Part shown: positions 4,486 to 62,484 of the stretch, piece by piece
How the letters are laid out: the number at the start of each line of letters is the position of its first letter
How positions within the stretch are numbered: the stretch's first letter is position 1
Source of the DNA: a virus
Taxonomy: Duplodnaviria > Caudoviricetes
Virus record (IMG/VR): IMGVR_UViG_3300027819_000006
Reading direction: 5' to 3' (one strand)
DNA: 64,000 bases
Program-made: the position numbers and the translations under genes
Notes under the pieces: generated by a model
Told to the model about the DNA's origin: nothing
What the model saw: only the letters and a program-made list of their open reading frames with translations
The model's database searches: none

Positions 4486-4503
4486 TTATTTTTATATATA
4501 GAG

Positions 4504-4818: not shown

Positions 4819-4835
4819 TTTATCTCATTTTAAAA

Positions 4836-4919
4836 TTGGTAGCCCTACTCAGATTTGAACTGAGACGGCATAAATGCCACTGCTTTTGAAGCAGTTGAGT
4901 AGACATTCCTCTATAGGGC
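4836..4919 (-). tRNA. tRNA-Leu(CAA)
   Basis: ACTGC-TT-CAA-AA-GCAGT arm, variable arm, CCA. Confidence 0.9.
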
Positions 4920-4942
4920 TATTGTTATTCTTCATCATTTAT

Positions 4943-5028
4943 TAGTAGCTCTGGAGGGATTTCAACCCTCACTCCATTTAAGGAACATATTCTTGAAATA
5001 TGCGAGTCTAGCAATTTCTCCACAGAGC
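4943..5028 (-). tRNA. tRNA-Leu(CAA), second divergent copy
   Basis: CATAT-TT-CAA-GA-ATATG arm, variable arm; 3' ACTA. Confidence 0.8.
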
Positions 5029-5036
5029 TATATTTT

Positions 5037-5110
5037 TGGTGGACTGAGATGGAATCGCACATCTACCACTAGTTTTTCAAGCTAGCACTCTTCTCCTGAG
5101 TTATCAGTCC
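5037..5110 (-). tRNA. tRNA-Phe(GAA)
   Basis: TT-GAA-AA loop, GGACTGA/TCAGTCC acceptor, CCA. Confidence 0.85.
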
Positions 5111-5118
5111 CTATTTAT

Positions 5119-5142
5119 TGGTGCACTTGATAGGATTCGAAC
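5119..5142 (-). pseudogene. tRNA 3' fragment
   Basis: GTTCGAATCCTATCAAGTGCACCA only. Confidence 0.6.
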
Positions 5143-5159
5143 ATATATGAGATTTTTAT

Positions 5160-5237
5160 TGGTGGGTCTGGCAGGAATTGCACCCGCATTTTTCTCCTTA
5201 AAAGGGAGCTACAAAAGCTAATTTTTGTTACAGACCC
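5160..5237 (-). tRNA. tRNA-Lys(TTT), atypical D-arm
   Basis: CTCC-CT-TTT-AA-GGAG arm, GGGTCTG/CAGACCC acceptor, CCA. Confidence 0.75.
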
Positions 5238-5821
5238 ATTAAAATCTTTAATTCATTTATGCATTTTAAAACATTTTCTTTAACATCTTGAGCTTCAAAT
5301 CTTATAACTTTCCAACCATTTTCTATACTAAATTTATCTCTTCTTTCATCTATTAATTTAACTTTTGGTAAATTATGTGTAGACCCATCAATTTCAACAT
5401 CAATTTTTAAATCTATAAAAGCAAAATCATAACAATATATACTATGCTGATAATTGTATATCCATCCTTCAATGTTTGAATATTCTAAAGCATTTTTGAA
5501 TATTTTTTCTGGATAACTCATTTTAGAGCAATGATTTAGTTTGTATGGAACTTTTTCTGGATGTTCCATTAAATATTTTATTCGATGTAAAGATAATTTG
5601 TTTCTAGTTTCTTCAGTGTGATGTCTGCCTGTCCAATATATTCTTGCTGATTCTGATCTTTTCTTCCTCAATATTTCACTTTTATCATTATCAAGACAAA
5701 ACATTACATGAGAAGTCATTTTTTGTGGTATATCAAAACAAAATTCTTTTTTACAATGTTTGCATACATATATTTTCATTATGATCCTCCAATTATATAA
5801 TAAATATAACTGTCGAATCAT
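5228..5821 (-). CDS. DUF559/Vsr-like free-standing endonuclease
   Basis: SYPE..YDFAF..VEIDGSTH..RRD..GWKVIRF; N-terminal Zn finger; likely start at Met 5776. Confidence 0.75.
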   Translation of the reverse strand: MIRQLYLLYNWRIIMKIYVCKHCKKEFCFDIPQKMTSHVMFCLDNDKSEILRKKRSESARIYWTGRHHTEETRNKLSLHRIKYLMEHPEKVPYKLNHCSKMSYPEKIFKNALEYSNIEGWIYNYQHSIYCYDFAFIDLKIDVEIDGSTHNLPKVKLIDERRDKFSIENGWKVIRFEAQDVKENVLKCINELKILMGL

Positions 5822-5896
5822 AAAAGACTTATGTAAAAAATATTTAATAAGCTAGTTCCAGTCATGGTGTACAAGTGCTTTTAATATTCAATATTT

Positions 5897-6007
5897 TGGC
5901 TGGCATGGTGGGTACCGCCCCCACATAATCTCCGTTAATTTTACATCTCTTAGGTTTAGCCTAATTGATGGGACAGCGGAGCGCAATTGCTTGTCTGCCA
6001 CATGCCA
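5897..6007 (-). tRNA. tRNA-Asn(GTT) interrupted by 35-nt insert (5938-5972)
   Basis: TGGCATG/CATGCCA acceptor, G73, CCA; removing the insert gives CTCCG-CT-GTT-AA-CGGAG. Confidence 0.75.
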
Positions 6008-6048
6008 GTATTTAAATTAGATTGTCTGCAACAATTTTTGTATAGTTT

Positions 6049-6082
6049 AATATAAACAATCTATGATCAAATGTAAACAACT
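6049..6082 (-). promoter_or_regulatory. conserved phage promoter driving the tRNA array
   Basis: AGTTGTTTACATTTGATCATAGATTGTTTATATT = TTTACA-N17-TATATT. Confidence 0.8.
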
Positions 6083-6099
6083 ATTTTAACAAAAACAAA

Positions 6100-6293
6100 A
6101 AAGAGATAAAACTTGAATGTCTTATCTCTGTGAAAGCTGTACTGCATATAAGACATTCATTCTAAGTCACTGTAGGTCTATTTTCATGATTATAGCTTTT
6201 AAAACTATTAATAGACAAACTATCTGAACATTGCAGATAGTTATCTGATAATAAGTTATGTCTTTGCTGTATGGTCATATGATTAATCTCTTT
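6100..6293 (-). ncRNA. putative multibranched structured RNA
   Basis: 11-bp and 9-bp perfect hairpins, 8-bp closing stem, no ORF. Confidence 0.4.
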
Positions 6294-6336
6294 AGTTGTT
6301 GCTAATATAAATATATCTTAATCATAGCAAAATGCA

Positions 6337-6993
6337 TTAAAAATCAGCAGTCTGTTCTTTGTTTGCCCAAGTATTTGTTGCTATATACTGTATCCTCTTT
6401 TCATTGACAATCTTAACTGCTTCTTCTTTACTTTTAGCCCAGATTGTACAGTATAGCACATGCTCATCTTGCAACAGACTATTTTTGAAATTAGAACTGT
6501 CATCAGAATTAAATAGATAAGGATAGAATCTTTCTTTCTTTTCAAACCATTCACATCTAGGGTCGTAGTTTTTGTCTCCATGGTTCAAATCTTCTACTGG
6601 ATCCTGGCTATAGTCTGACTCAACAATAGAATCACCATTTTCTCTCATATATACTACATAAGTTTTGTAGCCATTATTTATGAATGTCAGAGCTTTGTTT
6701 ATGTTGTCTATTCTGTTGTTCAGTTTAAATGATTCTGTAGAATATTCGCAATCTTGTTGTTCTACTAATCTATTTAATTTTTCTTTGTGATCATCTGTGA
6801 AAACTCCAATTGTCTGCATTCCTGAATATTCACCTTCATATAGAACATGAACAGTTTCTTCATTTTTCATAGATAAAATGAATCTTTCTAATAGTTCTAT
6901 ATTAACTATACCTACTAAATTCATTAATCTTCTTAGCAGATCTTGTTGTTCATAATTCAGATCATATTTTAGAACCAACTCTAATGTTTTCAT
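6337..6993 (-). CDS. hypothetical protein
   Basis: 218-aa ORF, translationally coupled. Confidence 0.7.
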   Translation of the reverse strand: MKTLELVLKYDLNYEQQDLLRRLMNLVGIVNIELLERFILSMKNEETVHVLYEGEYSGMQTIGVFTDDHKEKLNRLVEQQDCEYSTESFKLNNRIDNINKALTFINNGYKTYVVYMRENGDSIVESDYSQDPVEDLNHGDKNYDPRCEWFEKKERFYPYLFNSDDSSNFKNSLLQDEHVLYCTIWAKSKEEAVKIVNEKRIQYIATNTWANKEQTADF

Positions 6994-7271: not shown

Positions 7272-7559
7272 CTAAAAATCATTTGGATGTCTCAATCTGT
7301 CATCCCAGAATTCATCTACATTAGGTTTATTTGCTATATAGTTTTTGATGTTCAGCCCTACTTTTTGTAATGCTTCAAATGCATCTTGCAAAGCTTGTCC
7401 ACTTCTTAGTGTCCATAGATAGACTTCTGCTCCAGCTTCTATTTCTTTCTTAATAGCATTTATTACATCCCATTTTGGCTCACCAATAGCTAGATAGTTA
7501 CTCTGAGGATCTGTGAAAGTAGTTCCATCAAAATCCAAAGCTATATGTTTTGTCATCAA
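7272..7559 (-). CDS. small HAD-family phosphatase-like protein
   Basis: IALDFDGT motif I, LWTLRSG motif II, WDDR motif IV. Confidence 0.7.
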   Translation of the reverse strand: MMTKHIALDFDGTTFTDPQSNYLAIGEPKWDVINAIKKEIEAGAEVYLWTLRSGQALQDAFEALQKVGLNIKNYIANKPNVDEFWDDRLRHPNDF

Positions 7560-8593
7560 ACTGCCATTTCTGCTGTTAATTTAGGATGGAATTGATAATT
7601 CTCTAATTCAAAATCTGTCATCACAAAATCTTCTAATTTAGTCTGTCCTCTATCTTTTATTTTTAATTTTGATTTTGGTATTTGATATGGAATTCTCTGC
7701 AGCTGTTCTTTAACTATATCTATATGATTCAAATATATATGAGTATCTCCCCCGACAAATATTAATTCGTGCGGAACAGTATTTGTAAGTTTAGCCAATA
7801 TAGATAGTAGAAATGCATATGATGAAATATTCGAGCAGAGTCCTAAAAAACTATCCACACTCCTCTGATACCATTGCAGTGACAATTTCAATTCTGGAAT
7901 TTCTATTTTTGATAATATCTGATCTAATTTTGTTGATTCTTCAAACATTCCAGTAGAAGACTCTACATCTATTTTAAGCACTTTCATTATATCATCATAT
8001 AATACAGGACTGTTATTATTTAAATAGATTAGTTTGTCAAAATTATTCATTTTTGAACAATATAGCTGTATAAGAACATGGCATGGGGGCAATGCGCATT
8101 TATCTGAACTTACTTCTGCGGGATTCCAAGCTGTAACAAGTATTCTTCTGTCATTGGGATTTTTCTTGATTGTGTCTATAACGTTTTGAAGCTGATCTAT
8201 TTCATGTTTGTATATTTCTGTTTCTACAAAATTAGCTTCTTCTTTTTCTATAAATTCCCATTTCCGCCATTGTTTGCCATAGAGTTTGCCACAATCACCA
8301 TCATCTTCATAGTTATTTCTTTTTATATAATCTGCATAGTTTCCATCCCAGAATTTATTTTTAGCATATATTTTCTTTAGATCATTGATATTGGATGAAC
8401 CAGATATGAACCATAGTAATTCTGATAATATTGAAAGAACTGGCATTTGTCGTGTAGTAATTATTGGAAATCCTTCATATATAGAAAATCTAAGCGTAGT
8501 TCCAAAGATAGATTTAGTGTCTACACCAGTTCTGTCAGATTTAGTTTCTCCATTATCTAAAATATTTTGCAATAAGTCTAAATAGTTTCTCAA
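7556..8593 (-). CDS. thyA: thymidylate synthase
   Basis: DRTGVDT, ELLWFI, RRILVTAWNP, LPPCH, YQRSVD, NISSY, GDTHIYLNH. Confidence 0.95.
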   Translation of the reverse strand: MRNYLDLLQNILDNGETKSDRTGVDTKSIFGTTLRFSIYEGFPIITTRQMPVLSILSELLWFISGSSNINDLKKIYAKNKFWDGNYADYIKRNNYEDDGDCGKLYGKQWRKWEFIEKEEANFVETEIYKHEIDQLQNVIDTIKKNPNDRRILVTAWNPAEVSSDKCALPPCHVLIQLYCSKMNNFDKLIYLNNNSPVLYDDIMKVLKIDVESSTGMFEESTKLDQILSKIEIPELKLSLQWYQRSVDSFLGLCSNISSYAFLLSILAKLTNTVPHELIFVGGDTHIYLNHIDIVKEQLQRIPYQIPKSKLKIKDRGQTKLEDFVMTDFELENYQFHPKLTAEMAV

Positions 8594-9053: not shown

Positions 9054-9655
9054 AGAACCTCTCTAACAAATAGTGCAACTTCTATTTTTTCTCCGCATTT
9101 CATTGATAGGTCCGATAGTAATTGTTTAATAATAACTTTATCGTTTTTGATAAACTTTTGCTCTGATAGACAAACTTCTTTGAACCATTTATTCAGCTTT
9201 CCATCTACAATTTTCTGTAATAGCTCTTGTTTATCTGTTTTAAATCCTCCTTTTTCTGTCATTTCTTTCATAGTCACAATAGATAATAGATTCTGCTGAC
9301 TATTCAGCTCTCTTTCAGAAATATCTTCTTTAGAGACATACAGTGGATTTTCAGAAGCTATCTGCAGACATAGATCGTTTCCAAGAACATTAAACTCATC
9401 AGTTTTGGCCACAAAATCAGTTTGACATTTTAGTTTTAACAGAACTCCAATTTTCTTGTTAGCATGTACATATGTGAAAATTCTACCTTCAGAAGTAGTT
9501 GCATTGTTGTTTGTCAGAATCTGAATACTCTGTTCTTGCAGCCATCTGATAGCTAGTTCTATATCATTCTCTGTTTTTTCTAATGCTTCTTTACATTTTG
9601 CAACAGACACATTAGTTCTCTGTCTGAATTCTTTTATGATGTCAAGATTGTTCAT
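9050..9655 (-). CDS. tsf: translation elongation factor Ts (short form)
   Basis: IKEFRQRT..CKEAL, EGRI..YVH, LKCQTDFVAK, EVCLSEQKFIKND. Confidence 0.92.
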   Translation of the reverse strand: MNNLDIIKEFRQRTNVSVAKCKEALEKTENDIELAIRWLQEQSIQILTNNNATTSEGRIFTYVHANKKIGVLLKLKCQTDFVAKTDEFNVLGNDLCLQIASENPLYVSKEDISERELNSQQNLLSIVTMKEMTEKGGFKTDKQELLQKIVDGKLNKWFKEVCLSEQKFIKNDKVIIKQLLSDLSMKCGEKIEVALFVREVL

Positions 9656-10716
9656 TTTAGTCCTGCTTGTTTATTCAAATATTTCATGAACCAAATTCTA
9701 GCTGCTGTGCTAGCATCTCTTGTCATATCTTTTGGCTCTAAATTATTTGACTGTAATGTGTCCATTTCCTCTTTAATAATATCATTTACAACCCATTTTA
9801 GAAATGCACCAGTTCCTTTTACGTCTGGCTCAAGTGAATTTTGAGTAAAAACATATTCTATACCCTGTAAAAGTCTAGAATCTGTCACAGTATATGCAAT
9901 AAATTCATTAATAGAATTCATCTTTTCTGTATCTACTTCAGCAAGCTTTTTAACTTTAGAAGAAGAATGTTTCATCCCTTTACTTTTAAATGTAATTCTT
10001 CCAGTTTTGTTACTGTAGTTGCAAAAAACGATTCCTTCTCCTATTCCCTCTTTGCCAAAATATTTACCTACAGGACAGCAAGCTTCTACTTCTTCTGTCA
10101 TTTTCACAATTTCATTCTGCGATCTTTCAGGATAGTTAAAATCAATATCTATTGAATATGTTTTAAATTGATGAACATTATAAATTCTATTTTCATTGCT
10201 ATGAATATTTTTATATTGATCATCTGTTAGCCAATAAGCAAATACAGACTCTTCTTCTATAGCACTCATTGGAGTAATTTTAACTCCAAAAATTAAAAAC
10301 ATTTTTTCAAGTCCAGATATTGCTACTCCACCCTGAATGTTAGACCCTGCCCACTCTCCATAGATTGTAATAATGTCATCTTGTAAACTTTTAGTATCTT
10401 CATCTATTTGTTTGAACAATTTTAAAAAAACATCTTCATTAGATTTTACAAAAAATGCAAATCCAGCATTGTCATGTTCTACAGATACATTATGATTTCT
10501 TGCCTGTGCCCATATTTCTGTACCGTCGAAGGATACAGCTGCATGTGTCCCGTGAATTTTGCAAGTTCCAGTAAATGTAAGAGTTGGCAGCATTACAGAT
10601 GGATCATAGATCGCATCTCCATTTTCATCCTTACCTTTATATCTATAAGATAGCTGCACTCCTTTAATTACATTTCTGAACTGCTCAATTTCAGGAAATT
10701 TAATGAATTTTTTCAT
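9652..10716 (-). CDS. RNA ligase, Rnl2-like nucleotidyltransferase
   Basis: TCKIHGTHA (motif I), IYGEWAG, FLIFGV, GEGIVF, TFKSKG. Confidence 0.85.
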   Translation of the reverse strand: MKKFIKFPEIEQFRNVIKGVQLSYRYKGKDENGDAIYDPSVMLPTLTFTGTCKIHGTHAAVSFDGTEIWAQARNHNVSVEHDNAGFAFFVKSNEDVFLKLFKQIDEDTKSLQDDIITIYGEWAGSNIQGGVAISGLEKMFLIFGVKITPMSAIEEESVFAYWLTDDQYKNIHSNENRIYNVHQFKTYSIDIDFNYPERSQNEIVKMTEEVEACCPVGKYFGKEGIGEGIVFCNYSNKTGRITFKSKGMKHSSSKVKKLAEVDTEKMNSINEFIAYTVTDSRLLQGIEYVFTQNSLEPDVKGTGAFLKWVVNDIIKEEMDTLQSNNLEPKDMTRDASTAARIWFMKYLNKQAGLK

Positions 10717-24664: not shown

Positions 24665-25870
24665 CTAAATAAACTCCCAATGTTTTGTTTCTTGTCGAGC
24701 TTTAGGCATTTCTATATTTAATAGATTGTTTTCCCAATTCTGTTTTTGTTCTGAATCTAATTGGTCATATTCTAACTTTAGATTCCAAATACTCTTACAA
24801 CTTTCGTGATTCTTGCATAGCGCAGAGCATCCTGAAAATTTTTCTTTTTCTTCTATTAAATGCATAACTTTCATTCTATTTTCGACATCATTCCAAATAT
24901 CTATAAAACTCCTCTTATAAACATTGCCATATGAATACTTCAGATGCCCACGAGTATTAGGACACACAAAAATTTCTCCTTGAGCACCTATACATGGAGT
25001 TAACTGACTACCATAGCATTTCTTATAGTGTCGACCAAAGTGAATAGGATCATCTATTAAGTCATTCAACTTATATTCGTTGATCTGAAATTTGTCTCCT
25101 AATATTTCTTTTGCTTGCTTTAATAGTGGTTTTATATCAGTTTCCCAGAATTCTACTTTTCTTTGAGTTTCTCCTTCTTTTTCTACACTGATTATTTCTG
25201 GCTTATATTGACAATAATCTACATCATAATTTTTAAACATGTTAGCAAAATCAATTATTTCAGTATAATTGTCAGGAGTTATAACAAATCCAGTACCTAT
25301 TACTGTTTTGCTATTTATTCGCTTTTTAGTTTCTATTAATTTAGACAGATTAGATAGCATTTTATTCCAATCTGTATTCTTGTTAGTAACTCTAATTCTA
25401 TTATATGTTTCTTCTGTTCCTGAATCTATTGAAAATCTGATCCATTCCATATATTTGCACATAGATTCAAATAGATCAAATTTATCTAGCATTACACCTG
25501 CTGTAAATATACCCATTTTAATGTCAGAATTTTGTCCAATATATTCTAGAACGGGTTTAAATGCGGGTGAAATTGTCGATTCTCCACCCCCTGTGAAGTT
25601 TGTGCTGCGTACTCCAATGCTTATAAGATCTTTTGCTATTTCTAATGCTTTTTCTTTTTGCATTATAGATCTGTCAAATGTTTCAGAATTCTTATATTTA
25701 TCGAAATGAATATGCGCTGACAGGCAGAAGAAACACGAGTGCATACAGCTATTTGACAAGTCCCACTCTATAAGCACTGGAGGTGGATGATTTCCTTTTA
25801 TTAGCTCGATTGTTCTATCTATATTAGCTATTATTTTTTGCTGAGGAGAGAAGATTTTTAAATTTTTCAT
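24665..25870 (-). CDS. radical SAM/SPASM protein
   Basis: CMHSCFFC, FTGGGE, C-terminal Cys cluster with YGNV..SFIDIWN. Confidence 0.92.
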   Translation of the reverse strand: MKNLKIFSPQQKIIANIDRTIELIKGNHPPPVLIEWDLSNSCMHSCFFCLSAHIHFDKYKNSETFDRSIMQKEKALEIAKDLISIGVRSTNFTGGGESTISPAFKPVLEYIGQNSDIKMGIFTAGVMLDKFDLFESMCKYMEWIRFSIDSGTEETYNRIRVTNKNTDWNKMLSNLSKLIETKKRINSKTVIGTGFVITPDNYTEIIDFANMFKNYDVDYCQYKPEIISVEKEGETQRKVEFWETDIKPLLKQAKEILGDKFQINEYKLNDLIDDPIHFGRHYKKCYGSQLTPCIGAQGEIFVCPNTRGHLKYSYGNVYKRSFIDIWNDVENRMKVMHLIEEKEKFSGCSALCKNHESCKSIWNLKLEYDQLDSEQKQNWENNLLNIEMPKARQETKHWEFI

Positions 25871-26855
25871 ATTAAATTCAATTCTTTCATTTTGCTATTA
25901 TCCCATATCTCTATTGGAACATCTATATTGTTTTTAGCAAAAATGAGTTTATTTTTTGATTTTTCATCCATGTATCCTTTTACTTCTATTATTTTTGTAA
26001 GTAAATTATTTTCGAATATAAAGAAATCTCCTCTATAATGATTGTTTTTATCTTGCACTACATTCATATATTCGTATTTCCATACTATATTATTATCATC
26101 TAAATAGCAACTTTTAGCTCCCAAGACGATCTCATCCAAATATCATTATAATATCCACCTTTGCCAATGCCTGCATTTTTATATGCTGGCTCGCCATAAT
26201 GATGATGATTTTCACCTCTCAAATGATCATTACAATGCTGTTCCCACATTTCTAAAGCTTTTTCTCTACCATATTTATCTGTCCAAATATCCAATATAGA
26301 TATACCATACATAGGATTTCCTTCTCCTACATACAGTATCTTATTCCTTTCACTAGTTTTTATAGATATTGCTTTTAATCTATCATCTGTATCTTTAGTC
26401 AATCCTTTATTCCAATTTGGACTTATTATATTTGAGCAAGACATGCAATATAATTCATTCCTACCTATCTCTTTATAGCAAAAAATACATCTACCTTTGC
26501 AGTCTTTGCATATATAAGTATTATTGTTCCATGACAATTTATTTCCACAATACATGCAAAGTTTATCTATAGTGGGAACATGTCTGCATTCTGGGCACGC
26601 ATCATAATCATATTTTATTGTTAAATAATGTAATACTTTATTACAAAATCTGCATCTTTTTCTATCATTGTCTACACACTCACAGCATCTAGTTCGCTCT
26701 TTTGAAGAATTATTACCTAATTTATTATTACAACTTTCACATCTTCTAATTATAATTAATTTTGATTTCTCCAATAAACAATGTTTGCAAACTCCATGGC
26801 TATTTTTATTACCTAATCTATTACTGCACCCTTCTTCTTTACAAAATCTTATCAC
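25867..26855 (-). pseudogene. frameshifted Cys-rich homing-type PD-(D/E)XK endonuclease
   Basis: 26100-26855 ends WMRSSWELKVA; 25867-26139 continues YLDDNNIVWKYE..GDFFI..IIEVKG in another frame. Confidence 0.75.
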
Positions 26856-26874: not shown

Positions 26875-26963
26875 GAAATAGCTTATAGGTGTCTGAAAAA
26901 TACAAATTACTGTACTTTTTCCTATAAGCTATTTCATTATTTATAGCTTGTATTTTTCAGACA
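26875..26963 (-). repeat. interleaved double inverted repeat (A-B-A'-B'), copy 1
   Basis: 15-bp IR 26875-26889/26921-26935 and 16-bp IR 26890-26905/26948-26963, both perfect. Confidence 0.9.
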
Positions 26964-27050
26964 ATATAAATATATCTATTATAGAAGAAAAGACATTAAA
27001 AACTAATAATTTCTCCTTTTATTAAATCATGAATACAGATTTCATATCTT

Positions 27051-29324: not shown

Positions 29325-30186
29325 TTATATTAATGATAGTTCTTTCATTTTTTCACCATCCCATACTTCTACAATACAGTGCTCTAGTATTTCTTTTAAT
29401 AATAAAACTTTGAGCATATTTTCCATAGTAACATATCCTTTTACTTCAATTATTTTTATAAGTTCTTTCTTGTTATTATAAATGAAAAAATCTGGTAAGT
29501 ATGAAACATTGTTCCATAAAATATATCTTTTTTCTTCATACTTCCATATTATATTATTGTCGTCTAAATATTTTGCTACTTTTGCTTCCCATGTAGATCT
29601 AAAACATATTTTTTTATATCTAGTTTTTATACCTCTCCCTATTTTGGAACTTAATTTTATAAAACCATTTCTGAAACCATTTTTTCTTGTCTCAGATATC
29701 TTATCTCTTGTTTCTTTACTTACTTCTTTTCCAAACATTGGATTATTTTCGCCTTTGAACTCTTCTCCTTTTCCATATCTTGGATTATTTATTCCTCTGT
29801 AGTGATCATTTAAGTATTGTTCATACATTTCTTCTGCTCTTTCTTGTCCATAATTATCTATCCAAACATCTTTTAAACTTCTATTATATCGAGGATTATT
29901 TTCGCCCTTTAATGATCCATTATCTCTTATTGTTTTAGAAGCTTTTAAAGATATATTTTTGTATATTTCTTTAACTTCGTCTTTATTTCTATTTTTCGTC
30001 CAATGTTCTATTTCTCCACTATCTATTTTTGCTTTTCTAAAACCATTCGATAATTTAGCATTTGGAAATTTTATTTTATATCTTTAATGTCATGTTGTGC
30101 TTTTTAAGATGTGATGCAGTTATAAAAGAAAAAAGCTTATACTCTGTTTTATCTTCTATACATTGTAAGCAATGTATTTTATCCAA
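29325..30186 (-). pseudogene. homing-type NUMOD3 + PD-(D/E)XK endonuclease, frameshift near 30080
   Basis: ORF 29325-29828 extends in frame upstream; Zn-finger N-terminus from TTG 30186 in another frame; RSTWE..YLPDFFI..IIEVKG. Confidence 0.7.
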
Positions 30187-30273
30187 TTTATTCTCCAATA
30201 AAAATATTGTCAAACTATATGTTTAATAGATTTTTGATATCTATTAGCGCTCTGTAATAAATTTATGTTAGTA

Positions 30274-30549
30274 TTAAATATAAATATGCTGACTTATAGC
30301 TTTTACAATTCCTGTCTTTACGAATCTGTTAGATGTCTGTATTATTAAGTCTGCTTCTTTGCCATAGTCTATAGCTTCTTTATTAGATATTGAATAGTCA
30401 TAGTATAAGTTTTCATGGTTAACATAAACATAATTTGATTTTTCTGTAACTTTAAATTCTATATTTTTATCATCTAAATCATGTAATCCAAGAATTATTT
30501 GAGAAGTACTAAAACAATACTCAGGAGTACAAACAATTAAGATTTTCAT
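30274..30549 (-). CDS. short paralogue of the N-terminus of 31432-32400
   Basis: shared KIL..GLH.L..K..F..TE.SNY pattern. Confidence 0.55.
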   Translation of the reverse strand: MKILIVCTPEYCFSTSQIILGLHDLDDKNIEFKVTEKSNYVYVNHENLYYDYSISNKEAIDYGKEADLIIQTSNRFVKTGIVKAISQHIYI

Positions 30550-32509: not shown

Positions 32510-33694
32510 TTAATTTTCTTTGACAGAGAGATTATAGACTCCTCTGTGCAGAATGTTTAGAGCAGCATTGAAATCTGCATCTAAACTTAGACAGCAATTC
32601 AGACATAAAAATTGTTCATTCTTCCTATTTTTTTTATCTCTGAATCCACATGTAGAACAAGTTTGAGATGTATAGAAAGAAGAAACTTTCTTCAATTCTA
32701 TACCCTGTTCTTGACACAGCATTTCAAATTTTGAAATAACACTTGGATAAGACCAATATTGCAACTTACTATTCATTTTTTTGCTATATTTTGATTTATG
32801 CTTTACTTGTTGTAAATCTTCCAAGATGACAGTAGAAACATTTTTTAAATCAATGGAGTTGCAAATTTCGTTGATTTTATTGTTTTTGAAAGTAAGATAT
32901 TGTTTATAGTTTTTAGAGCCTCTCTTCATATTTGATAGTATAGTATACATTTGTTTCATTTCTTGACCATAGACATCATTATTTGAAGAAACTATAAGTT
33001 TATTGTAACCTATATCAAAAGCAATGGAATCATGTTTTTCTTTCATCTCTACTTCTTTTTCATATGAAAATATAATATAAAAATTGTCATTTATTTTCTT
33101 TAACTGCACAGTTTTCTTTCTATTCCAGTCTTTATATTTTAAAGATTGCTTATGCCACTTTATTGGAAGATTAATTTGAATTGCTTTCTTTTTATCAGAA
33201 TAAAAATGAGGCAATTTCAGTCCTATAAACTCATTAAAATGAATAGAAGAATTTTCATAGCTGAGTAATCTGTCATCAATATTAATAGAAATATTCTTAA
33301 TGTCTATTTTGCAAATTTTTATAGCATCTTTCAATTTCAAATCTTTAAATCTTTTGTTCAGAAATTTCAGCTGTCTATTTCTTTTGATAAAGTATTTGTA
33401 GCACTTCTTATATTTTTTATATCTTTTATCTAGACAGTATTCTATATTAGATCTGACAATCTCAGAAGCTTGTTTATAGACAATTTGTCTCCACTGAGAA
33501 TGATGAATTTTGTTAATAGGAAGAATCTTAGAAGACAAATTCTTATTTAATTCTAATTTTTGAGATAAAATAAGCTCTATATAAAATTTGACGTCTATTT
33601 CATAATCTTCAAATAGTTGTTCTAAATATTTAATTTTATTTAAATTAGAAAATTTTAAAATATGTCTACTACTTCTTATCAAGATCAATCTCAC
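32510..33694 (-). mobile_element. tnpB: IS200/IS605-family TnpB RNA-guided endonuclease, no TnpA seen
   Basis: RuvC FDIG, LEDL and DAD.NAA.NI; Zn ribbon SQTCSTCG..CLNC. Confidence 0.88.
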
Positions 33695-33702
33695 AATAAA
33701 AA

Positions 33703-33777
33703 TGCCAAGTATTGAACCTCAAATAGACTATGTCTATAAAGATACTTGGCAAATAGATAACATCTATTTGAGGTTCA
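33703..33777 (-). repeat. interleaved double inverted repeat, copy 2
   Basis: 10-bp IR 33703-33712/33742-33751 and 15-bp IR 33713-33727/33763-33777. Confidence 0.85.
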
Positions 33778-33988
33778 TATATAAATATATTGTGAGATTA
33801 GAAAAAGACAAAAAGGTTAAATTTTTACATTTATTTTACATAATTTTACAGAATATAGTTACTAGTTATAATATTTATGAAAGTTGACGCTTGTTGAATT
33901 GTATCAAACTGAGATGAATTCTTTGTAACAATATTTTCTCCCCAATCTGAATCATAGCTCACTGATACTTTCACGCTGAAACTCCTTG

Positions 33989-36084: not shown

Positions 36085-36118
36085 AATATAAACAAATATC
36101 ATACAAATGTAAACAACT
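36085..36118 (-). promoter_or_regulatory. conserved phage promoter upstream of topoisomerase IB
   Basis: AGTTGTTTACATTTG...TTTGTTTATATT. Confidence 0.75.
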
Positions 36119-37247
36119 TTTTTTCATCTTTTAATAAATCTTCTTTAAACAAAATATAGAATATTTTTGATTCTTTATCGTATTTTTCAATAAAAATTTG
36201 CATTTTCTCTTTAGATTCTGGTCTCATCCAGCCTTTAACTTCTTCTATTCTTATCAAATTATTATTTTCATCATAGATAAAGAAATCAGGAGTATAAGTT
36301 GTATTTTCTAATTTATAAGTTATTTCTTCATATTTCCAATTTGCAGATATAGAATCTAGAAATTGAGCTCTTTCCAGCTCATAGGTAGATTTCATCTTTA
36401 TTTCAGCATTGTTTCTATCTGCATAAACAACTCGATGCCACTTAGGAGATACTCCATACATAGGATTTCCAGAACCAGATCTATCTATAGACCATTTTTG
36501 TTTTTGTTCGTCTGAAAAAATATATCCATACATGCTATTTTTGCTACCAGTCATAGGATTAACACGATGATTTTCTTTATGTTTATTAATTAATTTTAAT
36601 AATTTATTTTCTGCAATTTCCTCTCCATATTTAATTACCCAAGCATCAAAAAAAGACATTCCAAACATTGGGTTTTTGTCTCCTTTTAATGATTCAGAAA
36701 TGTTTCTCTTATGAGAATCTGAAAGTTTTTTATCTTGCCAAACACCAGGCCTACCCATTAAAGATTTAGATATTTTTTCTTTTACTCCAGGCTTATGTAC
36801 AGGATTTCTATCTCCAAGTTTACAACAAACTCTGCACATATTTAAATCTGCAGAAACTACATTAGTGCATCCTTCTTCAACACAATAGAAAGTTTTAGAA
36901 GCTTTACATTCATCACAAATAAAAATTTTTCTATGACCTTTAAGCATTTTATCTCCACATACTGTACATCTACAAGTATTTTTCTCAGACATATAAAATT
37001 GATGTTTTGAACATCTACTACCTTCATTTTTTACTTTATTGTTGCAATTTTCTATTAAGCATTTATATTCTATTTTATTTCTGCAATCTCCACAAATACC
37101 AATTTTATTAGTTCCGCCTATAGGATTTATTTTACAAGTTTTGCATATTAATGGAGGTTTTCCACTCTTACATCTTTTACAGATATTACTTTTATAATTA
37201 ACATTAAGTTTTTTAGGGCACGATATACAGTATCTATCTTCTTGCAT
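36099..37247 (-). CDS. Cys-rich NUMOD3 + PD-(D/E)XK homing-type endonuclease
   Basis: many CxxC pairs, GDKNPMFG repeats, KSTYE..YTPDFFIY..EEVKGW. Confidence 0.8.
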   Translation of the reverse strand: MQEDRYCISCPKKLNVNYKSNICKRCKSGKPPLICKTCKINPIGGTNKIGICGDCRNKIEYKCLIENCNNKVKNEGSRCSKHQFYMSEKNTCRCTVCGDKMLKGHRKIFICDECKASKTFYCVEEGCTNVVSADLNMCRVCCKLGDRNPVHKPGVKEKISKSLMGRPGVWQDKKLSDSHKRNISESLKGDKNPMFGMSFFDAWVIKYGEEIAENKLLKLINKHKENHRVNPMTGSKNSMYGYIFSDEQKQKWSIDRSGSGNPMYGVSPKWHRVVYADRNNAEIKMKSTYELERAQFLDSISANWKYEEITYKLENTTYTPDFFIYDENNNLIRIEEVKGWMRPESKEKMQIFIEKYDKESKIFYILFKEDLLKDEKKLFTFV

Positions 37248-37260: not shown

Positions 37261-37352
37261 AAAAATTGTCTATAGTAGCACCCTAATAGACTGAAGTCAG
37301 AAGGCTATAGACAATTTTTCAAATATATTTATGTTTTGTCTATTAGTGTGCT
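37261..37352 (-). repeat. interleaved double inverted repeat, copy 3
   Basis: 15-bp IR 37261-37275/37305-37319; 15-bp IR with one mismatch 37277-37291/37338-37352. Confidence 0.8.
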
Positions 37353-37603
37353 TATAATAAATATATTTGATCAAGAAATAAATGCATTTGACCTATCCCT
37401 GTCTCTGCCATTAGCAGATATCCATATCCCTCTTTTGAACCAGCTTCTATATCTTTAATTATCTTTGGTTCAATAGTTCCCCAGTCTCTAGCAATTTTTC
37501 CTACACGTACAAACTTTGCAATTTTCTTGTCTTTTTGCTTTATTCTACCATTTGGATCAGAGAAGAATACTGCTGGCCTATTTTCGTAAGTGAAGTTGAT
37601 CAT
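37352..37603 (-). pseudogene. truncated second topoisomerase IB N-terminus
   Basis: RIKQKDKK.KF.RV..IEP.I..DI..GSKE..TGI matches 35110-36045 and stops just before the catalytic Arg. Confidence 0.85.
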
Positions 37604-43930: not shown

Positions 43931-44971
43931 TTATGACAAGCTTTTATAAATATCTAATTGTTTTTTGCCCATATCTAGTGCATAGCACATATTTTTCCAA
44001 AGTGATTTTGCATTATTACTAAAATATTCATAATCTACTTTTTTATCTGCAAATGCTTTCATTATTCTTGAATATTCATCTACATCTCCATATTTTGTCA
44101 CGAATCCTGAGTTCTGTATGCATTCTATATGTCCTTGATAATGTAATCCGTAATGACTTATTATTGGTTTACCTCTTGATTGAGCATTCCATATTGCTGA
44201 AGAATTACATTCGCCATCTTTTCTTGAGTGAGTCATCACATTTAGAGTGTTATAAAATCTATTTATTCTGTCTGTATCAATAGATTTATTTATCAATCTA
44301 TAATTTTTAATATTTAGCTTTTCAAATGATTCTTTAGCATATTCTTCTACTCCCATTATAACAAAACAAGTTTTGTCAGTTTCTATTTTAGAGTAAGCTA
44401 ATAAATTTAGATTATCAAAAGTCTGAGGATCTGGTCGACCAATATGACCGAAGACAAAAGTATCTTCGTCTATATTCAGTTCTTTTCTTAAATTTTCATT
44501 ATTCAAAGGATCTTCTACTGGATTTCTTACAACTAAATGATTTGAATCATTTTGCTTATTTACAGCATTTCTAATCCAGCTTGATACATATATTACTTTT
44601 GATATATCTATTGTCTCATCTTGATTTCCAAAAACTGAAGTAGATATAAAATGTTTGCAATGCTGTTTAATTTCTTTTATAAATGGAAACTCTGGAATGC
44701 CCGCAGAATATCTATGAGTAATAAAAGGCTTAATCTCTCTCGTTATATAAACTAGCTCTGGTCTTGATCCATAAGCAAATACTCTATCTTTACCCAATAT
44801 TTTTGAAAATTGTTCAAATCTTAAACTGTCTTTATCTGCAGGATAAAATACTGTATGAATAAAATTGCTCTCTTTATCAATAATATTCATGTGTTTACAT
44901 AGCAGTAATAACATCTCTTGTGTCCCGCCAATTCCTAAGTCTCCTATATGATGAAGTACTGTTTTTTTCAT
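43931..44971 (-). CDS. GT4-like glycosyltransferase
   Basis: GIGGTQ, FGHIGR, DGECNSSAIWNAQSRGKPIIS. Confidence 0.85.
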   Translation of the reverse strand: MKKTVLHHIGDLGIGGTQEMLLLLCKHMNIIDKESNFIHTVFYPADKDSLRFEQFSKILGKDRVFAYGSRPELVYITREIKPFITHRYSAGIPEFPFIKEIKQHCKHFISTSVFGNQDETIDISKVIYVSSWIRNAVNKQNDSNHLVVRNPVEDPLNNENLRKELNIDEDTFVFGHIGRPDPQTFDNLNLLAYSKIETDKTCFVIMGVEEYAKESFEKLNIKNYRLINKSIDTDRINRFYNTLNVMTHSRKDGECNSSAIWNAQSRGKPIISHYGLHYQGHIECIQNSGFVTKYGDVDEYSRIMKAFADKKVDYEYFSNNAKSLWKNMCYALDMGKKQLDIYKSLS

Positions 44972-46020
44972 ACTTCATCCTTATAGATATTTTCTTTTAT
45001 TTTTATAGCTCTTTCTTTATAATATTCATCTAAATCTCTATCTAGATATTCGCCAAAAACTATATGATATATTTGAGATTGCTCAGGATATAGTTCGACA
45101 AATTTAGATATTTTTTCTCTCGATTTATTTAAAGTATATTCGCATTTCACTTCCTCTATTCTGATCAAATTATTATTTTCATCATAAATATGAAAATCAG
45201 GGATATATTTGCATGTCAATAAATCATATTTTATTTCTTCATAAGTCCATATTATATTTTTAGAATCTAAGAATATTGCTCGTTTAACTTCATATGAAGA
45301 TCTCATATTATATCCATTGTATGGATATCTGCTTTTTACTTTTATAGTGTTTTTTCTACATTTTTCACATATTCCATTTTTATTACCTTTATGAATAGGT
45401 GCAGGGCACAATGAACAAAAAACACCATGATTCTTAACTTTATCTTTAACATTAGAGCATTCTAATATTATATTTGGATAATCTTTTCTTATATGAATAG
45501 CATTCATATATTTATGTTTTGTCATCATATGTCTAGTCAGTTGCTGTTTCACTTTACTGCATATTGGACATATTAAATAATCAACGAATTCCTGTCCTGT
45601 CAGCAACTGTTTTATAATATCTAATCTTATATTTTTATTATGTTCAACTATATGCTGTTTGCTTTTTGATGCAGAGCAACTTCTGCATAAATCGCTTCTG
45701 CCAGTAGTTTCTCCACCACAATTAGAGCAGTAATATTTTTTAAGTTTTCTGCAATTATTACATTCTTCGAAACCATTAGATATAGTCCTTTTTGGAAGTA
45801 CTTTTCCACATGATATGCAGCTAATATCTTTTTTAAAATCTTCATCTCTGCATTCGACACACATATCAATATTTTTTAATACAGTATGATAATGAAGTAT
45901 TTTATTGCATGATATGCAACGAGCTCTGCTATTCAATCTACAATTTTTGCATATTTTTAAACCAGCTGCTATTGTATGATGATGAAGATTTTTATTGCAT
46001 TTTTCACATTTCTTATTCAT
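44968..46020 (-). CDS. Cys-rich PD-(D/E)XK homing-type endonuclease
   Basis: repeated CxxC; MRSSYE..YIPDFHIY..EEVKC. Confidence 0.75.
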   Translation of the reverse strand: MNKKCEKCNKNLHHHTIAAGLKICKNCRLNSRARCISCNKILHYHTVLKNIDMCVECRDEDFKKDISCISCGKVLPKRTISNGFEECNNCRKLKKYYCSNCGGETTGRSDLCRSCSASKSKQHIVEHNKNIRLDIIKQLLTGQEFVDYLICPICSKVKQQLTRHMMTKHKYMNAIHIRKDYPNIILECSNVKDKVKNHGVFCSLCPAPIHKGNKNGICEKCRKNTIKVKSRYPYNGYNMRSSYEVKRAIFLDSKNIIWTYEEIKYDLLTCKYIPDFHIYDENNNLIRIEEVKCEYTLNKSREKISKFVELYPEQSQIYHIVFGEYLDRDLDEYYKERAIKIKENIYKDEV

Positions 46021-59109: not shown

Positions 59110-59973
59110 TTAGCAAATTATACGCCAAACTATATCTATTTCGTCTTCCCAGATGCGAATTAGTCTATAACCATTATCTTCAGCTATTCTATTTTTTCTA
59201 TTATCATTATCAATCTTTCCCTTTTGCCATTCATTTACAGGTCCATTAACATATATTCTAGGATTACAGTGATAATAGTTACCATCAACTTCTATTAACA
59301 TGTTATATTCTGGAATATAAAAATCAAAATAAGATTTATTTAAATAAAACTGACTCTTATACTCTATATTTAAACTATCTAAAATCTTAGCTATTTTTAT
59401 TTCAGGTTTACTTATTCTATATTTAAGACATTTTTCATTTCTATTTTTATTTCTTGCAATCCACATTTCTTCTGCTTTTTCAAGACCATGTTTTTCTATC
59501 CATATATCTTTAAGTGATTTACCATACATGGGATTTTTGCTTCCAGAAACATCTGCATGATTTTCTGACATACTAACAGTTGATTTTTTTATTCTTTCAT
59601 CAGTTTCTTTAGTTAAGCCTTTATTCCATGTTATTATAGATCCTTGTTCAAGCCTTTCTATTCGTGTTTCAGATATTTTATTACATGATTCGATAGAATG
59701 TTTTCTACCATACATGGGATTATTTTCACCCTTTGCTAAACCTTTTTCTATTCTAGTTTTAGATATTTTAGCTTTAGTTTCTTCAGATGCTTTTCTCCCT
59801 TTCAACTTTCCTGAATTTTTACATTTATGACATTTTCTATTCAGCCCAGTAACTTCGTTCAAGCAATTTGTCGCAGCACATTTATATTTGATATATTCTA
59901 TGCATTCTTGACATATTCCAGATTTATTTCTATTGCCTAATTCATTAATACCACAAATATAGCATAATAGCAT
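59110..59973 (-). CDS. NUMOD3 + DUF559/Vsr-like homing-type endonuclease
   Basis: GENNPMYGRKHS, SKPE..FDFYI..IEVDGNYYH..GYRLIRIWE. Confidence 0.85.
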   Translation of the reverse strand: MLLCYICGINELGNRNKSGICQECIEYIKYKCAATNCLNEVTGLNRKCHKCKNSGKLKGRKASEETKAKISKTRIEKGLAKGENNPMYGRKHSIESCNKISETRIERLEQGSIITWNKGLTKETDERIKKSTVSMSENHADVSGSKNPMYGKSLKDIWIEKHGLEKAEEMWIARNKNRNEKCLKYRISKPEIKIAKILDSLNIEYKSQFYLNKSYFDFYIPEYNMLIEVDGNYYHCNPRIYVNGPVNEWQKGKIDNDNRKNRIAEDNGYRLIRIWEDEIDIVWRIIC

Positions 59974-59990
59974 TATACATTCTCAAATAA

Positions 59991-60072
59991 AAAGACTTAC
60001 AGTGTGGATAAGAAATAATAGCAAAGCTATTTTCACTGTAAGTCTTTGTAAACTACTATTATTTCTTATCCA
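59991..60072 (-). repeat. interleaved double inverted repeat, copy 4
   Basis: 14-bp IR 59991-60004/60034-60047 and 17-bp IR 60005-60021/60056-60072, both perfect. Confidence 0.9.
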
Positions 60073-60105
60073 ATAATAAATATATTTGAGAAAATGCAAA
60101 ATGCA

Positions 60106-62484
60106 TTATTTTAGTTTACATTTTATAAAAAATCCCTTATCGATATCTTGTAAATATTCATATTCTAAATTTACTAAATTTAACAAATATTCTATAGCTT
60201 TAGGAGTTGGTAGCCATACGTGCTCTCCCTTACCTATGGTTTGCCATCTCTGCATATGTTCTTGTGCTTCTATGCATCTAAAATTTGGACATCCTATAAA
60301 TAATAGTGAATTTTCATGCATCAAATTTTTACAATTATTTAAGAATTCTAAAGGATTTGTATGCTCTATTACTTGATCAGAAAATAGAATATCAAATTTT
60401 TTATCAGTAAATAGTTCAAAACTACCATATAGAAGCTTGTTTTTTAATTCTGGGAATAATTCTAATCCTTTATCTATGCTGGGCTTATTTATATCTACTC
60501 CTACAGCATCATAGCCTTCTTCTATAGCAGCTTTTACAACCAGTCCGCAGTTAGCTCCAATATCTATAAAAGAACCTGAATTTTTGTACTGCTTAGCTTT
60601 CAAAACATTGGGTTTAGAATGATTATTAAAAACTTCTTGCCATCTAAAACTATATTCATCAGATATATTCTTCTCTTGATCTATATGTATATTGTAATCA
60701 TTTTTCTGTATGAAATCTAATTCCTCATTTACATAGTATTGACTTCCTGGAATATTAAAATAGAATTTAGATTTTTTGCTATTATCTATCATTAGCTTAG
60801 GTTTTTCTAAGAATTTATCAATAGCTGCTATAACATGCTCTGGTTCGATGCTAGACATGCATATAAATTGACTAGTGTTTACGCATTTTGGAATAAAAGT
60901 TAATCCACCATTGTCTAACAAGTTAAAAAATTGTGAATGTTTGCATGAAATGCATTCTAGAGCATTATTCTGTATATAGTATATATATTCTCTGTTAGCA
61001 TTGCTTAAATAAGTAGAAGCTGCTCCATTGATAGCGATAGAGGGAATATTAAATGATCTTGCTATATGAATTGGACCATTATCTCCACCTAAGAAAAATT
61101 CGCTATGTTTAATTAGAGATAATAGTGTTTTTAAATCGACTTTATGATACTTGCTGTCTGTCAATTCAGAAAAATCAGATAGACCAGGCTCTATTACTTT
61201 ATGACCTTTTTTTTGTAAATATTCTATTATAGATTTATATTTAGCTTGTCCTAAAGTTTTTCCTCCCCACCCGCTACCATCTGCTACTACCACAACATAG
61301 GGTTTTAAATGAGAAAAATCTTCATATAGATGATTACTATTATCTAGTTCAGCATATTTATCTTTTGGATTATTAAACGTTATATCTGCTGTTCTAGCAT
61401 AGGAATCAATGAATAATTTATTTTTTGAGCTCTCATATGATAGATCGAGAGAGATTTTTAACTGATGATTAGTATTGTTTAAATGATCTTCTAATATTAA
61501 TTTGTCATCTATTTTTACTATTTCATCGGGCTTATGAGCAAAATATTCTACTATTTCAGGTTTAGCTGTATAGAAAGTAATTTTGCATCCTTCATATTTT
61601 TGTCTTAATTTCTTTACTATCGGCTCACATAGCAATATATCTCCAATACCAACTACACGAGAAATTCCAATGTCAACTATTCCAGATGTCTGTTTTAGTA
61701 TATCTAATATTCTATTATTGTGTTCTGTAAATGCAGCATTTCCCATCAGAGTTGGAAATGTTCTCTTTATTTCTATATCATCATCTTTTTCTATAATTTC
61801 TTCTTTAATGTCTACAGATTTAGGTGCTCCAATTTGCTTAGCTATATCTTCCAAAGACATCTGCTGTTTTCCACCACCAAATTTGACCCATTGAACAACA
61901 GTAATTTCTGCTGGTATGCAACCTCTATATCCTTTTTCTGCCCATTGCTTCAGTACAAGCCCAGGCATGAATAGAGGCTGTCCATCTTTTACTTCTACAC
62001 ATTTATTCCAGTCTACTTCTACATCTTTGAAATGACAGATTTCATCTAAACATATTTCTTCTATTTTTGGAGGATTTGATATTCTGAAACCAATTGTATT
62101 CAGAGGATGATCTGGAATATCTACATTTCTATATTCGCAATGTCCAAGAGCATATTTACAGTGCTTATTATTTGCAAAATCTTCTAAATGTGCAGCTATA
62201 TGTCTTGGAAACCACATTATGTTATTGACAGTCTTGTAAAAAATAATATCAGCAGAAGCTAACTTAAGTGCCTCATTGAATAGAGAGACACTCTCGTCAG
62301 TTTTAATAAATCTTATATTTAGAGATATTTCTTTACACTTCTCTTTAACAGTATCTAAATCTCTTATAGAAGACACAATTAAATCTATATTTTTATGAGT
62401 CTGTTCAAACACATTCTTGATAGAGTTTTGAACATGTATGTCATCTGAATTTTCAGCTATTAATATGACGGTTACTAAATCCAA
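60106..62484 (-). CDS. multidomain GT2-like + GT9 + SAM methyltransferase protein
   Basis: N-terminal GT-A-like; GIGDILL..GGDNGPIHIA (GT9); FIDIGANCG..DQVIEH (MTase). Confidence 0.85.
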   Translation of the reverse strand: MDLVTVILIAENSDDIHVQNSIKNVFEQTHKNIDLIVSSIRDLDTVKEKCKEISLNIRFIKTDESVSLFNEALKLASADIIFYKTVNNIMWFPRHIAAHLEDFANNKHCKYALGHCEYRNVDIPDHPLNTIGFRISNPPKIEEICLDEICHFKDVEVDWNKCVEVKDGQPLFMPGLVLKQWAEKGYRGCIPAEITVVQWVKFGGGKQQMSLEDIAKQIGAPKSVDIKEEIIEKDDDIEIKRTFPTLMGNAAFTEHNNRILDILKQTSGIVDIGISRVVGIGDILLCEPIVKKLRQKYEGCKITFYTAKPEIVEYFAHKPDEIVKIDDKLILEDHLNNTNHQLKISLDLSYESSKNKLFIDSYARTADITFNNPKDKYAELDNSNHLYEDFSHLKPYVVVVADGSGWGGKTLGQAKYKSIIEYLQKKGHKVIEPGLSDFSELTDSKYHKVDLKTLLSLIKHSEFFLGGDNGPIHIARSFNIPSIAINGAASTYLSNANREYIYYIQNNALECISCKHSQFFNLLDNGGLTFIPKCVNTSQFICMSSIEPEHVIAAIDKFLEKPKLMIDNSKKSKFYFNIPGSQYYVNEELDFIQKNDYNIHIDQEKNISDEYSFRWQEVFNNHSKPNVLKAKQYKNSGSFIDIGANCGLVVKAAIEEGYDAVGVDINKPSIDKGLELFPELKNKLLYGSFELFTDKKFDILFSDQVIEHTNPLEFLNNCKNLMHENSLLFIGCPNFRCIEAQEHMQRWQTIGKGEHVWLPTPKAIEYLLNLVNLEYEYLQDIDKGFFIKCKLK

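Follow-up and report, generated by a model that had tools for sequence, protein, structure and literature searches.

Phage genomes are crowded with homing endonucleases, joined in the genome studied here by TnpB, and a phage has to be protected from the nucleases of this kind that it carries. What do two long inverted repeats do when they are interleaved with each other and stand directly in front of a nuclease gene? The question is raised by a phage of the Caudoviricetes (IMG/VR record IMGVR_UViG_3300027819_000006), of which a 64,000-nt stretch, hereafter the window, was analysed at its full length. The window corresponds to the reverse strand of a groundwater-metagenome contig of 271,885 nt, and contig positions are obtained as 228005 minus the window coordinate.

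Interleaved repeats upstream of a nuclease gene

The region of interest (site 1) lies between a 792-aa glycosyl/methyltransferase gene (stop codon 60106-60108), for which neither IMG/VR nor the phage GenBank collection yielded a relative, and the gene of a 287-aa nuclease. On the minus strand of this intergenic region, two inverted repeats at 59988-60072 are interleaved as A-B-A′-B′, and A′ adjoins B′ directly. The repeats that the original prediction had placed at 59991-60072 are real: A:A′ is paired at 17/17 positions and B:B′ at 16/17, with a perfect core of 14 bp and a gap of 0 between the two 3′ arms. Read along the minus strand, the order is A, 5 nt, B, 12 nt, A′, B′, UUUUUAUUU, GAGA and ATG. 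The features of site 1 are the following.

60102-60107, minus strand: −35-like hexamer AATGCA, overlapping the stop codon of the 792-aa upstream gene; putative promoter element
60100-60073, minus strand: alternative sigma-70-like match (TTTGCA, 16 nt, TATTAT)
60083-60092, minus strand: 5′ arm of an outer clamp with a perfect 10-bp core, present only in read-through RNA; partner 59980-59989
60076-60085, minus strand: invariant motif ATATATTTAT, containing the −10-like TATATT (60084-60079)
60056-60072, minus strand: arm A, 17 nt, beginning at the predicted +1 and 100% complementary to A′
60034-60050, minus strand: arm B, 17 nt, one mismatch, perfect core 60034-60047
60017-60031, minus strand: mini-hairpin formed by L2, the B-to-A′ linker (AAUAGC), and the 5′-terminal part of A′ (GCUAUU); z = −2.4
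60005-60021, minus strand: arm A′
59988-60004, minus strand: arm B′, no gap to A′
59981-59993, minus strand: U-run (UUUUUAUUU) followed by Shine-Dalgarno (SD)-like GAGA; ATG at 59973
59980-59989, minus strand: 3′ arm of the clamp, lying over the U-run and SD
59110-59973, minus strand: 287-aa zinc-ribbon + NUMOD3 + Vsr/DUF559-like endonuclease gene (Pfam)

A family of leaders in front of mobile nuclease genes

The window contains 8 perfect inverted repeats of at least 14 nt, against 0.09 expected from 100 dinucleotide shuffles, and 2 interleaved pairs of at least 12 nt, against 0 in the shuffles. Eight of the 12 inverted repeats of at least 12 nt fall at four sites, namely site 1 and the positions 26875, 33703 and 37261 (sites 2-4), where the same geometry had been predicted. 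A detector was built that searches for two interleaved helices whose 3′ arms abut with a gap of at most 1 nt, G.U pairs plus one mismatch being allowed. Its score is the number of Watson-Crick pairs and its cut-off 25, which replaced a looser first threshold that returned 200 matches against about 170 in shuffled sequences. The maximum reached in 20 shuffles of the 64-kb window was 20-24, whereas the four sites scored 34, 33, 29 and 25. Walking the contig by protein look-ups added the loci L081, L082, L090, L092, L093 and L094, and in the resulting 143 kb (53% of the 272-kb phage contig) at least 14 copies with scores of 25-34 paired bases were found. All 14 lie on the coding strand directly 5′ of a gene of mobile-nuclease type. 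Recurrence of the architecture had therefore been recognised correctly by the original prediction, and the family of four that it described has at least 14 members in this genome.

The genes behind the 14 copies comprise 12 NUMOD3/zinc-ribbon homing-endonuclease-like genes, which end in Vsr-like, DUF1064-like or PvuRts1I-like parts and several of which are split or decayed, and 2 TnpB genes. The variety of nuclease classes noticed at the outset was confirmed by Pfam matches to NUMOD3+Vsr/DUF559, TnpB and NUMOD3+DUF1064. The repeats are perfect at site 2 (26875-26963; 16 and 15 bp) and at site 3 (33703-33777; 15 and 10 bp), where the U-rich tail after B′ reads UUUUUAUU; at site 4, three interleaved helices form a chain. 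The layout of these sites is given below.

26875-26975, minus strand: site 2 leader; motif 26975-26966, A 26963-26948, B 26935-26921, A′ 26905-26890, B′ 26889-26875
26867-26864 and 26855, minus strand: site 2 start signals, GGAG and GTG
33687-33799, minus strand: site 3 leader (TnpB); motif 33790-33781, A 33777-33763, B 33751-33742, A′ 33727-33713, B′ 33712-33703, then a U-run
33799-33788 with 33698-33687, minus strand: site 3 outer clamp, a 12-bp repeat covering the GTG at 33694
37261-37370, minus strand: site 4 leader; Z 37370-37357, which holds the promoter motif, pairs with Z′ 37332-37319
37352-37338, 37319-37305, 37291-37277 and 37275-37261, minus strand: site 4 arms A, B, A′ and B′
37256-37250, minus strand: site 4 GGAGAGG, preceded by U9 after B′ and followed by ATG at 37247
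36099-37247, minus strand: site 4 NUMOD3+DUF1064 gene (Pfam)

The nuclease gene of site 2 had been taken to be 26100-26855. This ORF encodes only the zinc-ribbon/NUMOD part, and the nuclease-like domain is found in the next ORF, 25867-26139. Nuclease-like genes split into two ORFs or decayed also occur elsewhere (window 25867-26855 and 29325-30549; L090 5968-6780; L094 18108-18786), and the leader is still intact before such genes at site 2 and in copies L90a and L94a. Separately, the thymidylate synthase gene at 7556-8593 (minus strand) matches Pfam in two separate stretches and may carry an insertion.

About 10 other nuclease-like genes in the scanned DNA have no leader, among them window 44968-46020, L081 3620, 8833 and 10001, and two TnpBs of another subfamily. 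The NUMOD/DUF1064-type gene at 44968-46020 (minus strand) has a start codon that overlaps the stop of the upstream ORF (ATGA), which suggests translational coupling in place of a leader. The scanned part of the genome holds four TnpB genes. Two of them, which lie in L092 at 153-1421 (plus strand) and, on the opposite strand, at 3723-4949 (minus), belong to an OrfB_IS605-containing subfamily and carry a TATATTTAT motif near the start, with no interleaved leader. A score-26 match in L092 (5240 to 5116, minus strand) was left uncounted; it is an A/T-rich repeat inside a plus-strand ORF, 150 nt from a TnpB start and without the promoter motif.

Searches beyond this genome covered 476 kb around homologs of the site 1 nuclease (80 IMG/VR loci), where the architecture was not found and no match reached 25. 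At locus L003, what looked like interleaved repeats was AT-rich low-complexity sequence in a divergent promoter region, the nuclease gene there having a plain terminator hairpin, and a match at L045 falls in a tRNA-like region. Nor did related T4-like groundwater phages have the architecture at their TnpB loci (TnpB 58-62% identical). An exact 20-mer of the TnpB leader had one chance match in IMG/VR, inside a structural gene, and a gapped leader pattern had 0 matches in the JGI metagenomes. So far, the leader family is confined to this genome. Only tRNAs reached the gathering score in Rfam, and permissive scans of the leaders gave nothing or generic hairpins far below threshold. Elsewhere in the window (2204-2302, minus strand), a perfect 20-bp (23-nt) inverted repeat extends the acceptor stem of a tRNA-Ile(tat) called by ARAGORN at 2215-2289. 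This tRNA, which the Rfam tRNA model did not report, adjoins a cluster of 13 tRNA genes (406-5237).

A common layout and a promoter-like motif

An upstream motif, ATATATTTA(T), is common to all copies. Its site 1 form has 9 exact matches against 2.5 expected, six of them on the coding strand and all of these within nuclease cassettes. In 14/14 copies, 3-7 nt separate the end of its hexamer TATATT (in one copy CATATT) from arm A. The hexamers lying 17 nt upstream of TATATT in the first six copies are AATGCA, AATGTC, TTTGTC, AATGCA, ATGACA and ATGTTT, and five of the six carry TG in the same place, 20-21 nt ahead of TATATT (17-nt spacer). Judged from its sequence, the combination of TG, 17 nt and TATATT would be a sigma-70-like promoter whose transcript starts at arm A. 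Reading TATATT as a −10 element is suggested by a second conserved promoter-like motif of this genome with the same hexamer, GTTTACATT, N, ATTGTTTATATT(A/T)AAAC (TTTACA, 17 nt, TATATT). Given that TATATT stands 3-7 nt before A, arm A would therefore begin at the predicted transcript start. The second motif, which probably represents the general early promoter class of the phage, is located as follows.

Window about 2030-2070 and 6050-6090, minus strand; L082 11390, 16908 and 20150; L081 2770: second promoter-like motif

A 206-aa protein encoded at L081 334-954 has a weak Sigma70_r2 match and may be a phage sigma factor relevant to promoter use.

Downstream of the motif, the layout is as constant as the arms are variable. 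Thirteen copies have no gap between A′ and B′, and one has a gap of 1. From the end of B′ it is 8-24 nt to the start codon and 2-12 nt to the Shine-Dalgarno sequence (GGAG or GAGA), and the whole forms a 5′ leader of 85-130 nt. Arm sequences are unique to each copy, and the arms do not recur elsewhere in the window as target-site copies or cassette ends would. The statement that the sites share no primary sequence consequently holds for the arms; for the leaders as a whole it fails, given the common upstream motif and the homology of four of them described below.

Compensatory changes in both helices

The covariation that had been called for was found within this genome. Four leaders are homologous: those of site 3 (TnpB), L082 9907 (TnpB, the protein being 67% identical to the site 3 TnpB), L090 5869 and L092 6637 (both zinc-ribbon nuclease-like). 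When their pairs were indexed outward from the junction, 8 of the 9 variable pairs across the two helices were compensated, 5/5 in helix A and 3/4 in helix B, where the remaining one has a C.A cell resembling an intermediate; one inserted base pair is also compensated. Pair counting on three of the homologous leaders gave 21 pairs with 98.4% paired cells and 4 pairs changed on both sides, a result equalled by 2/500 shuffles, and pairing fell to 25-44% when the partners were slid. Because compensatory changes occur in both helices, both appear to be maintained by selection. The sequencing runs X3, X4 and X6 contained only identical low-coverage contigs of the same phage and no diverged relatives for covariation.

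The presence of a homologous leader before both TnpB and zinc-ribbon genes indicates that the leader is a module exchanged between nuclease classes, common to protein-guided and RNA-guided nucleases. The leader might be mistaken for the IS200/IS605 transposon end (LE hairpin) of TnpB. This candidate was rejected since the leader also stands before zinc-ribbon genes and the nearest TnpB elsewhere, an 83%-identical protein in another sample, is without the leader and has an overlapping upstream ORF. The idea of a scar of mobilisation fares no better: the arms recur nowhere else, the closest TnpB elsewhere has no leader, and a scar would leave the covariation unexplained.

Two helices that are unlikely to coexist

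The interleaved order is that of an H-type pseudoknot, in which both helices form together. In the leaders it is the two 3′ strands that are connected without a linker, which leaves the A-to-B linker to bridge both stacked helices, 25-40 bp. This linker measures −6 to 14 nt in most copies (−5 to 26 across the first six) and 17-35 nt in three or four (site 4, L81b, L82b and L94a). With a linker this short and more than one turn in each helix, A:A′ and B:B′ probably do not form at the same time, as the original prediction had supposed.

The order in which they form was examined by prefix folding. For RNA that stops after A′, the lowest-energy fold is A:A′ in 6/6 copies; once B′ has been made, B:B′ is the fold in 4/6. 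The energies of the isolated states lie within about 4 kcal/mol in 7/11 copies, that is, the two folds are nearly isoenergetic. A further element was recognised in L2, whose pairing with the 5′ part of A′ is stronger than that of shuffled L2 in 11/11 tested copies (mean z = −2.0, 11/11 negative, Wilcoxon p = 0.001). The resulting mini-hairpin is compatible with B:B′ and competes with A:A′, and it therefore makes sense only if A:A′ is sometimes absent.

Pairing of the start region with the promoter segment

When 120 nt of upstream RNA was added to the leaders, the accessibility of the start region fell by 0.19 on average (11 copies, Wilcoxon p = 0.005). In 77 control genes the drop was 0.02 ± 0.09, from which the first six copies differ at Mann-Whitney p = 0.002. 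In 6/11 copies the start region has the promoter segment from −40 to −1 as its partner (P ≥ 0.49), and this outer clamp is weak or absent in 5/11. At site 1 the start region pairs with the promoter segment at P = 0.85, and the clamp spans about −11 to −35 from +1. In about half of the copies, a third, outer helix would thus pair the promoter segment with the SD and start codon. As the promoter segment is present only in RNA that comes from upstream genes, the clamp would silence read-through transcripts, like the hairpins of T4 I-TevI, segB and mobE. At site 4, folding of read-through RNA gave Z:Z′ plus B:B′, and folding of RNA from the cassette's own promoter gave A:A′.

A proposed bistable leader as a probable safety catch

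The account that we infer from the sequence, with its presumed promoter activity, +1 position, action as RNA, switching and output, would run as follows. The cassette would be a self-contained unit of promoter, 85-130-nt leader and nuclease gene, the core of the leader being the finding reported here. The sigma-70-like promoter (TG, 17 nt, TATATT) would start the transcript at the first base of arm A. State 1 would consist of the 5′-terminal helix A:A′, and state 2 of helix B:B′ plus the mini-hairpin of L2 with the 5′ part of A′. A′ would touch B′ because together they form one continuous 3′ segment for which the two folds compete. The long helices share no bases, so exclusion would be by geometry and not by overlap, and since there is then no path for strand displacement, the molecule would keep whichever fold came first. 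A:A′ would come first during transcription, B:B′ being equally or more stable.

The number of transcripts that survive or undergo translation most likely depends on the fold, as suggested by B′ ending 2-12 nt before the SD. In state 1 the 5′ end would be paired and protected, and ribosomes could land on B′, which would be free and single-stranded; state 2 would leave an exposed 5′ tail and press a helix against the SD. Because the paired 5′ end of state 1 and the SD-abutting helix of state 2 are universal features, control of ribosome loading and/or mRNA stability is favoured, attenuation being ranked second. We regard it with moderate confidence that the leader, as modelled, is a bistable RNA whose two folds set the expression of the cassette. 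Its role is most likely that of a safety catch on nuclease expression. The translational switch restraining a toxic nuclease that had been proposed for site 1 is accordingly upheld in its two-state part by the covariation, the near-equal energies and the mini-hairpin. Its translational output is not, in that forcing state 1 or state 2 produced no consistent change in the accessibility of the SD and start codon.

More tentatively, the leaders might represent a new class of RNA switch, with long helices exclusive by topology alone and irreversible commitment, and with promoter and leader acting as a portable safety catch for a homing endonuclease gene or TnpB. If the two-state reading is true, this would be a natural, kinetically committed RNA switch made of non-overlapping helices, and it would offer a handle on the control of TnpB expression in a phage. 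Cassettes of mobile nucleases could then be recognised in phage genomes lacking annotation by a simple signature: TATATT, a distance of about 6 nt, interleaved arms whose 3′ halves abut, and an SD.

Alternative explanations

A transcription attenuator, in which B:B′ and the U-run act as an intrinsic terminator and A:A′ as the anti-terminator, setting the read-out to the nuclease gene, is rather unlikely but has several features on its side. A U-rich tail directly follows B′ in about 9/14 copies (U9 at site 4; at site 3 the tail quoted above), A-tracts often precede B, state 2 with its mini-hairpin makes a long, nearly continuous hairpin, and at another place (6159-6102) the window has a terminator and anti-terminator that overlap in the classical manner. 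Copies L82b and L93a, however, are without a U-tract and have the SD 3-4 nt after B′, and the U content of the tails does not differ significantly from that of control 5′ UTRs (p = 0.085). As the U-tail is missing in two copies and not above controls, termination cannot be the shared output. Instead of the GC-rich stem, short loop and adjacent U-tract of an intrinsic terminator, the leaders have AT-rich stems with loops of 25-40 nt, and a terminator scan was empty at site 1. Nor do A:A′ and B:B′ share bases as the rival helices of an attenuator do, the mini-hairpin alone sharing A′. In 5/6 copies, moreover, A:A′ forms first in own-promoter and read-through RNA alike.

The pair at 6159-6102 belongs to a 515-nt non-coding stretch (5822-6341, minus strand) 5′ of a zinc-finger/Vsr-like nuclease gene (5228-5821). 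At its beginning stand the promoter motif (6316-6307) and, covering the start of a 38-aa ORF, a clamp-like helix (6341-6318 paired with 6286-6263). The stretch continues with the overlapping anti-terminator/terminator pair (6159-6148:6125-6114 versus 6129-6119:6112-6102) plus a U-run, and then contains a GC-rich structured segment (about 5880-6000).

It is improbable that the repeats work instead at the DNA level, as hairpins or cruciforms that mark cassette boundaries, stall branch migration or promote the recombination of modules. The compensatory changes fit DNA hairpins as well as RNA. The helices are nearly all Watson-Crick (322 WC, 9 G.T, 4 A.C; G.U versus A.C 9 to 4, p = 0.13), and sense and antisense strands fold equally well, their energies showing no difference from controls. 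The homologous leader before TnpB and zinc-ribbon genes speaks for module exchange. In T4-type phages, shuffling of this kind has been proposed to be brought about by the PeSL promoter/stem-loop motifs (PMC4122927). What speaks for RNA is position: the structure starts at the predicted +1, ends at the SD and has the same orientation to the gene in 14/14 copies. These, together with the tuning of L2 to A′, are constraints to be expected of a transcript but not of duplex DNA. Also against a DNA element, the arms recur nowhere else and the 3′ ends of the cassettes have no matching element.

A static fold, in which both helices form together at least partly as a pseudoknot-like barrier to RNases or ribosomes, has little probability. 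Selection acts on both helices, and the linkers of 17-35 nt could in principle span the stack; in most copies the linker is far below the 25-40 bp needed, the full formation of two helices of more than one turn would require threading, and the conserved mini-hairpin competes with A:A′. As for the suggestion that A′B′ is a splint aligning the 3′ end of B with the 5′ end of A for a ligase, giving a 36-60-nt circle, A′B′ is the exact reverse complement of the B|A junction, arm A starts at the predicted RNA 5′ end and an RNA-ligase family gene (PF09414) lies at 9652-10716, but the idea is hardly credible, given that so small a circle, its linker mostly too short, cannot pair over 25-40 bp with a linear splint, that the primary transcript is predicted to carry a 5′-triphosphate, that no cleavage signal follows B, and that a splint needs neither the selection along both helices nor that on the L2 mini-hairpin.

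Comparison with known systems

The bistable leader proposed here can be set beside several known systems, of which a literature search brought up only the T4 hairpin and the PeSL/PmSL motifs, both different from the leader. In T4-type control of homing endonuclease genes (I-TevI, I-TevII, I-TevIII, segB and Aeh1 mobE), a hairpin that sequesters the ribosome-binding site carries the gene's own promoter embedded in it (PMC2988022). The likeness lies in the selfish nuclease cargo and in the pairing of the SD and start with a promoter-bearing segment in 6/11 copies. The solution of T4 is nevertheless a single hairpin with a promoter inside, and the one described here is more elaborate, being found in at least 14 copies, supported by covariation, and placing 85-130 nt with interleaved helices and a mini-hairpin, all under selection and absent from the T4 examples described, between promoter and SD, so that the regulatory structure comprises more than one hairpin. 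The plain T4-like form occurs in a related groundwater phage, as one hairpin running into the ATG with a TATATTTAT motif in its loop, from which it follows that the interleaved pair is an addition to a known theme.

The PeSL and PmSL elements of T4-type phages join a conserved promoter to stem-loops beside variable, dispensable genes and show signs of modular exchange (PMC2839356, PMC4122927). The Mot-box-like TGC..TT plus TATATT of the leader resembles PmSL promoters. PeSL, in contrast, is one short terminator stem-loop of conserved sequence 5′ of the promoter; the leader has the reverse order, with two long helices 3′ of the promoter whose arms are variable and unique to each copy, which places it outside that class.

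With terminator/anti-terminator attenuators and riboswitch platforms, the leader shares two alternative folds, a segment (A′) with rival partners (A or L2) and a U-run that often follows the last helix. Unlike in those systems, the two long helices have no nucleotide in common, a conserved binding sequence for a ligand or protein is absent, the U-tract is not universal and the loops measure 25-40 nt. With the H-type pseudoknot it shares the order A-B-A′-B′. In such a knot the stems are short, and the linker that is short or missing is the one connecting the 5′ strand of stem 2 to the 3′ strand of stem 1, whereas the leader has stems of 10-24 bp and its zero linker joins the two 3′ strands.

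In the bistable or metastable leaders of the type I toxin mRNAs hok and tisB, the product is toxic, the structure formed first is not the most stable one, and the state of the 5′ end decides ribosome loading. The leader would share with them the toxic gene product, the sequential folding and the influence of the 5′ end. Architecture and sequence are unrelated, and the leader has no known antisense RNA or processing site.
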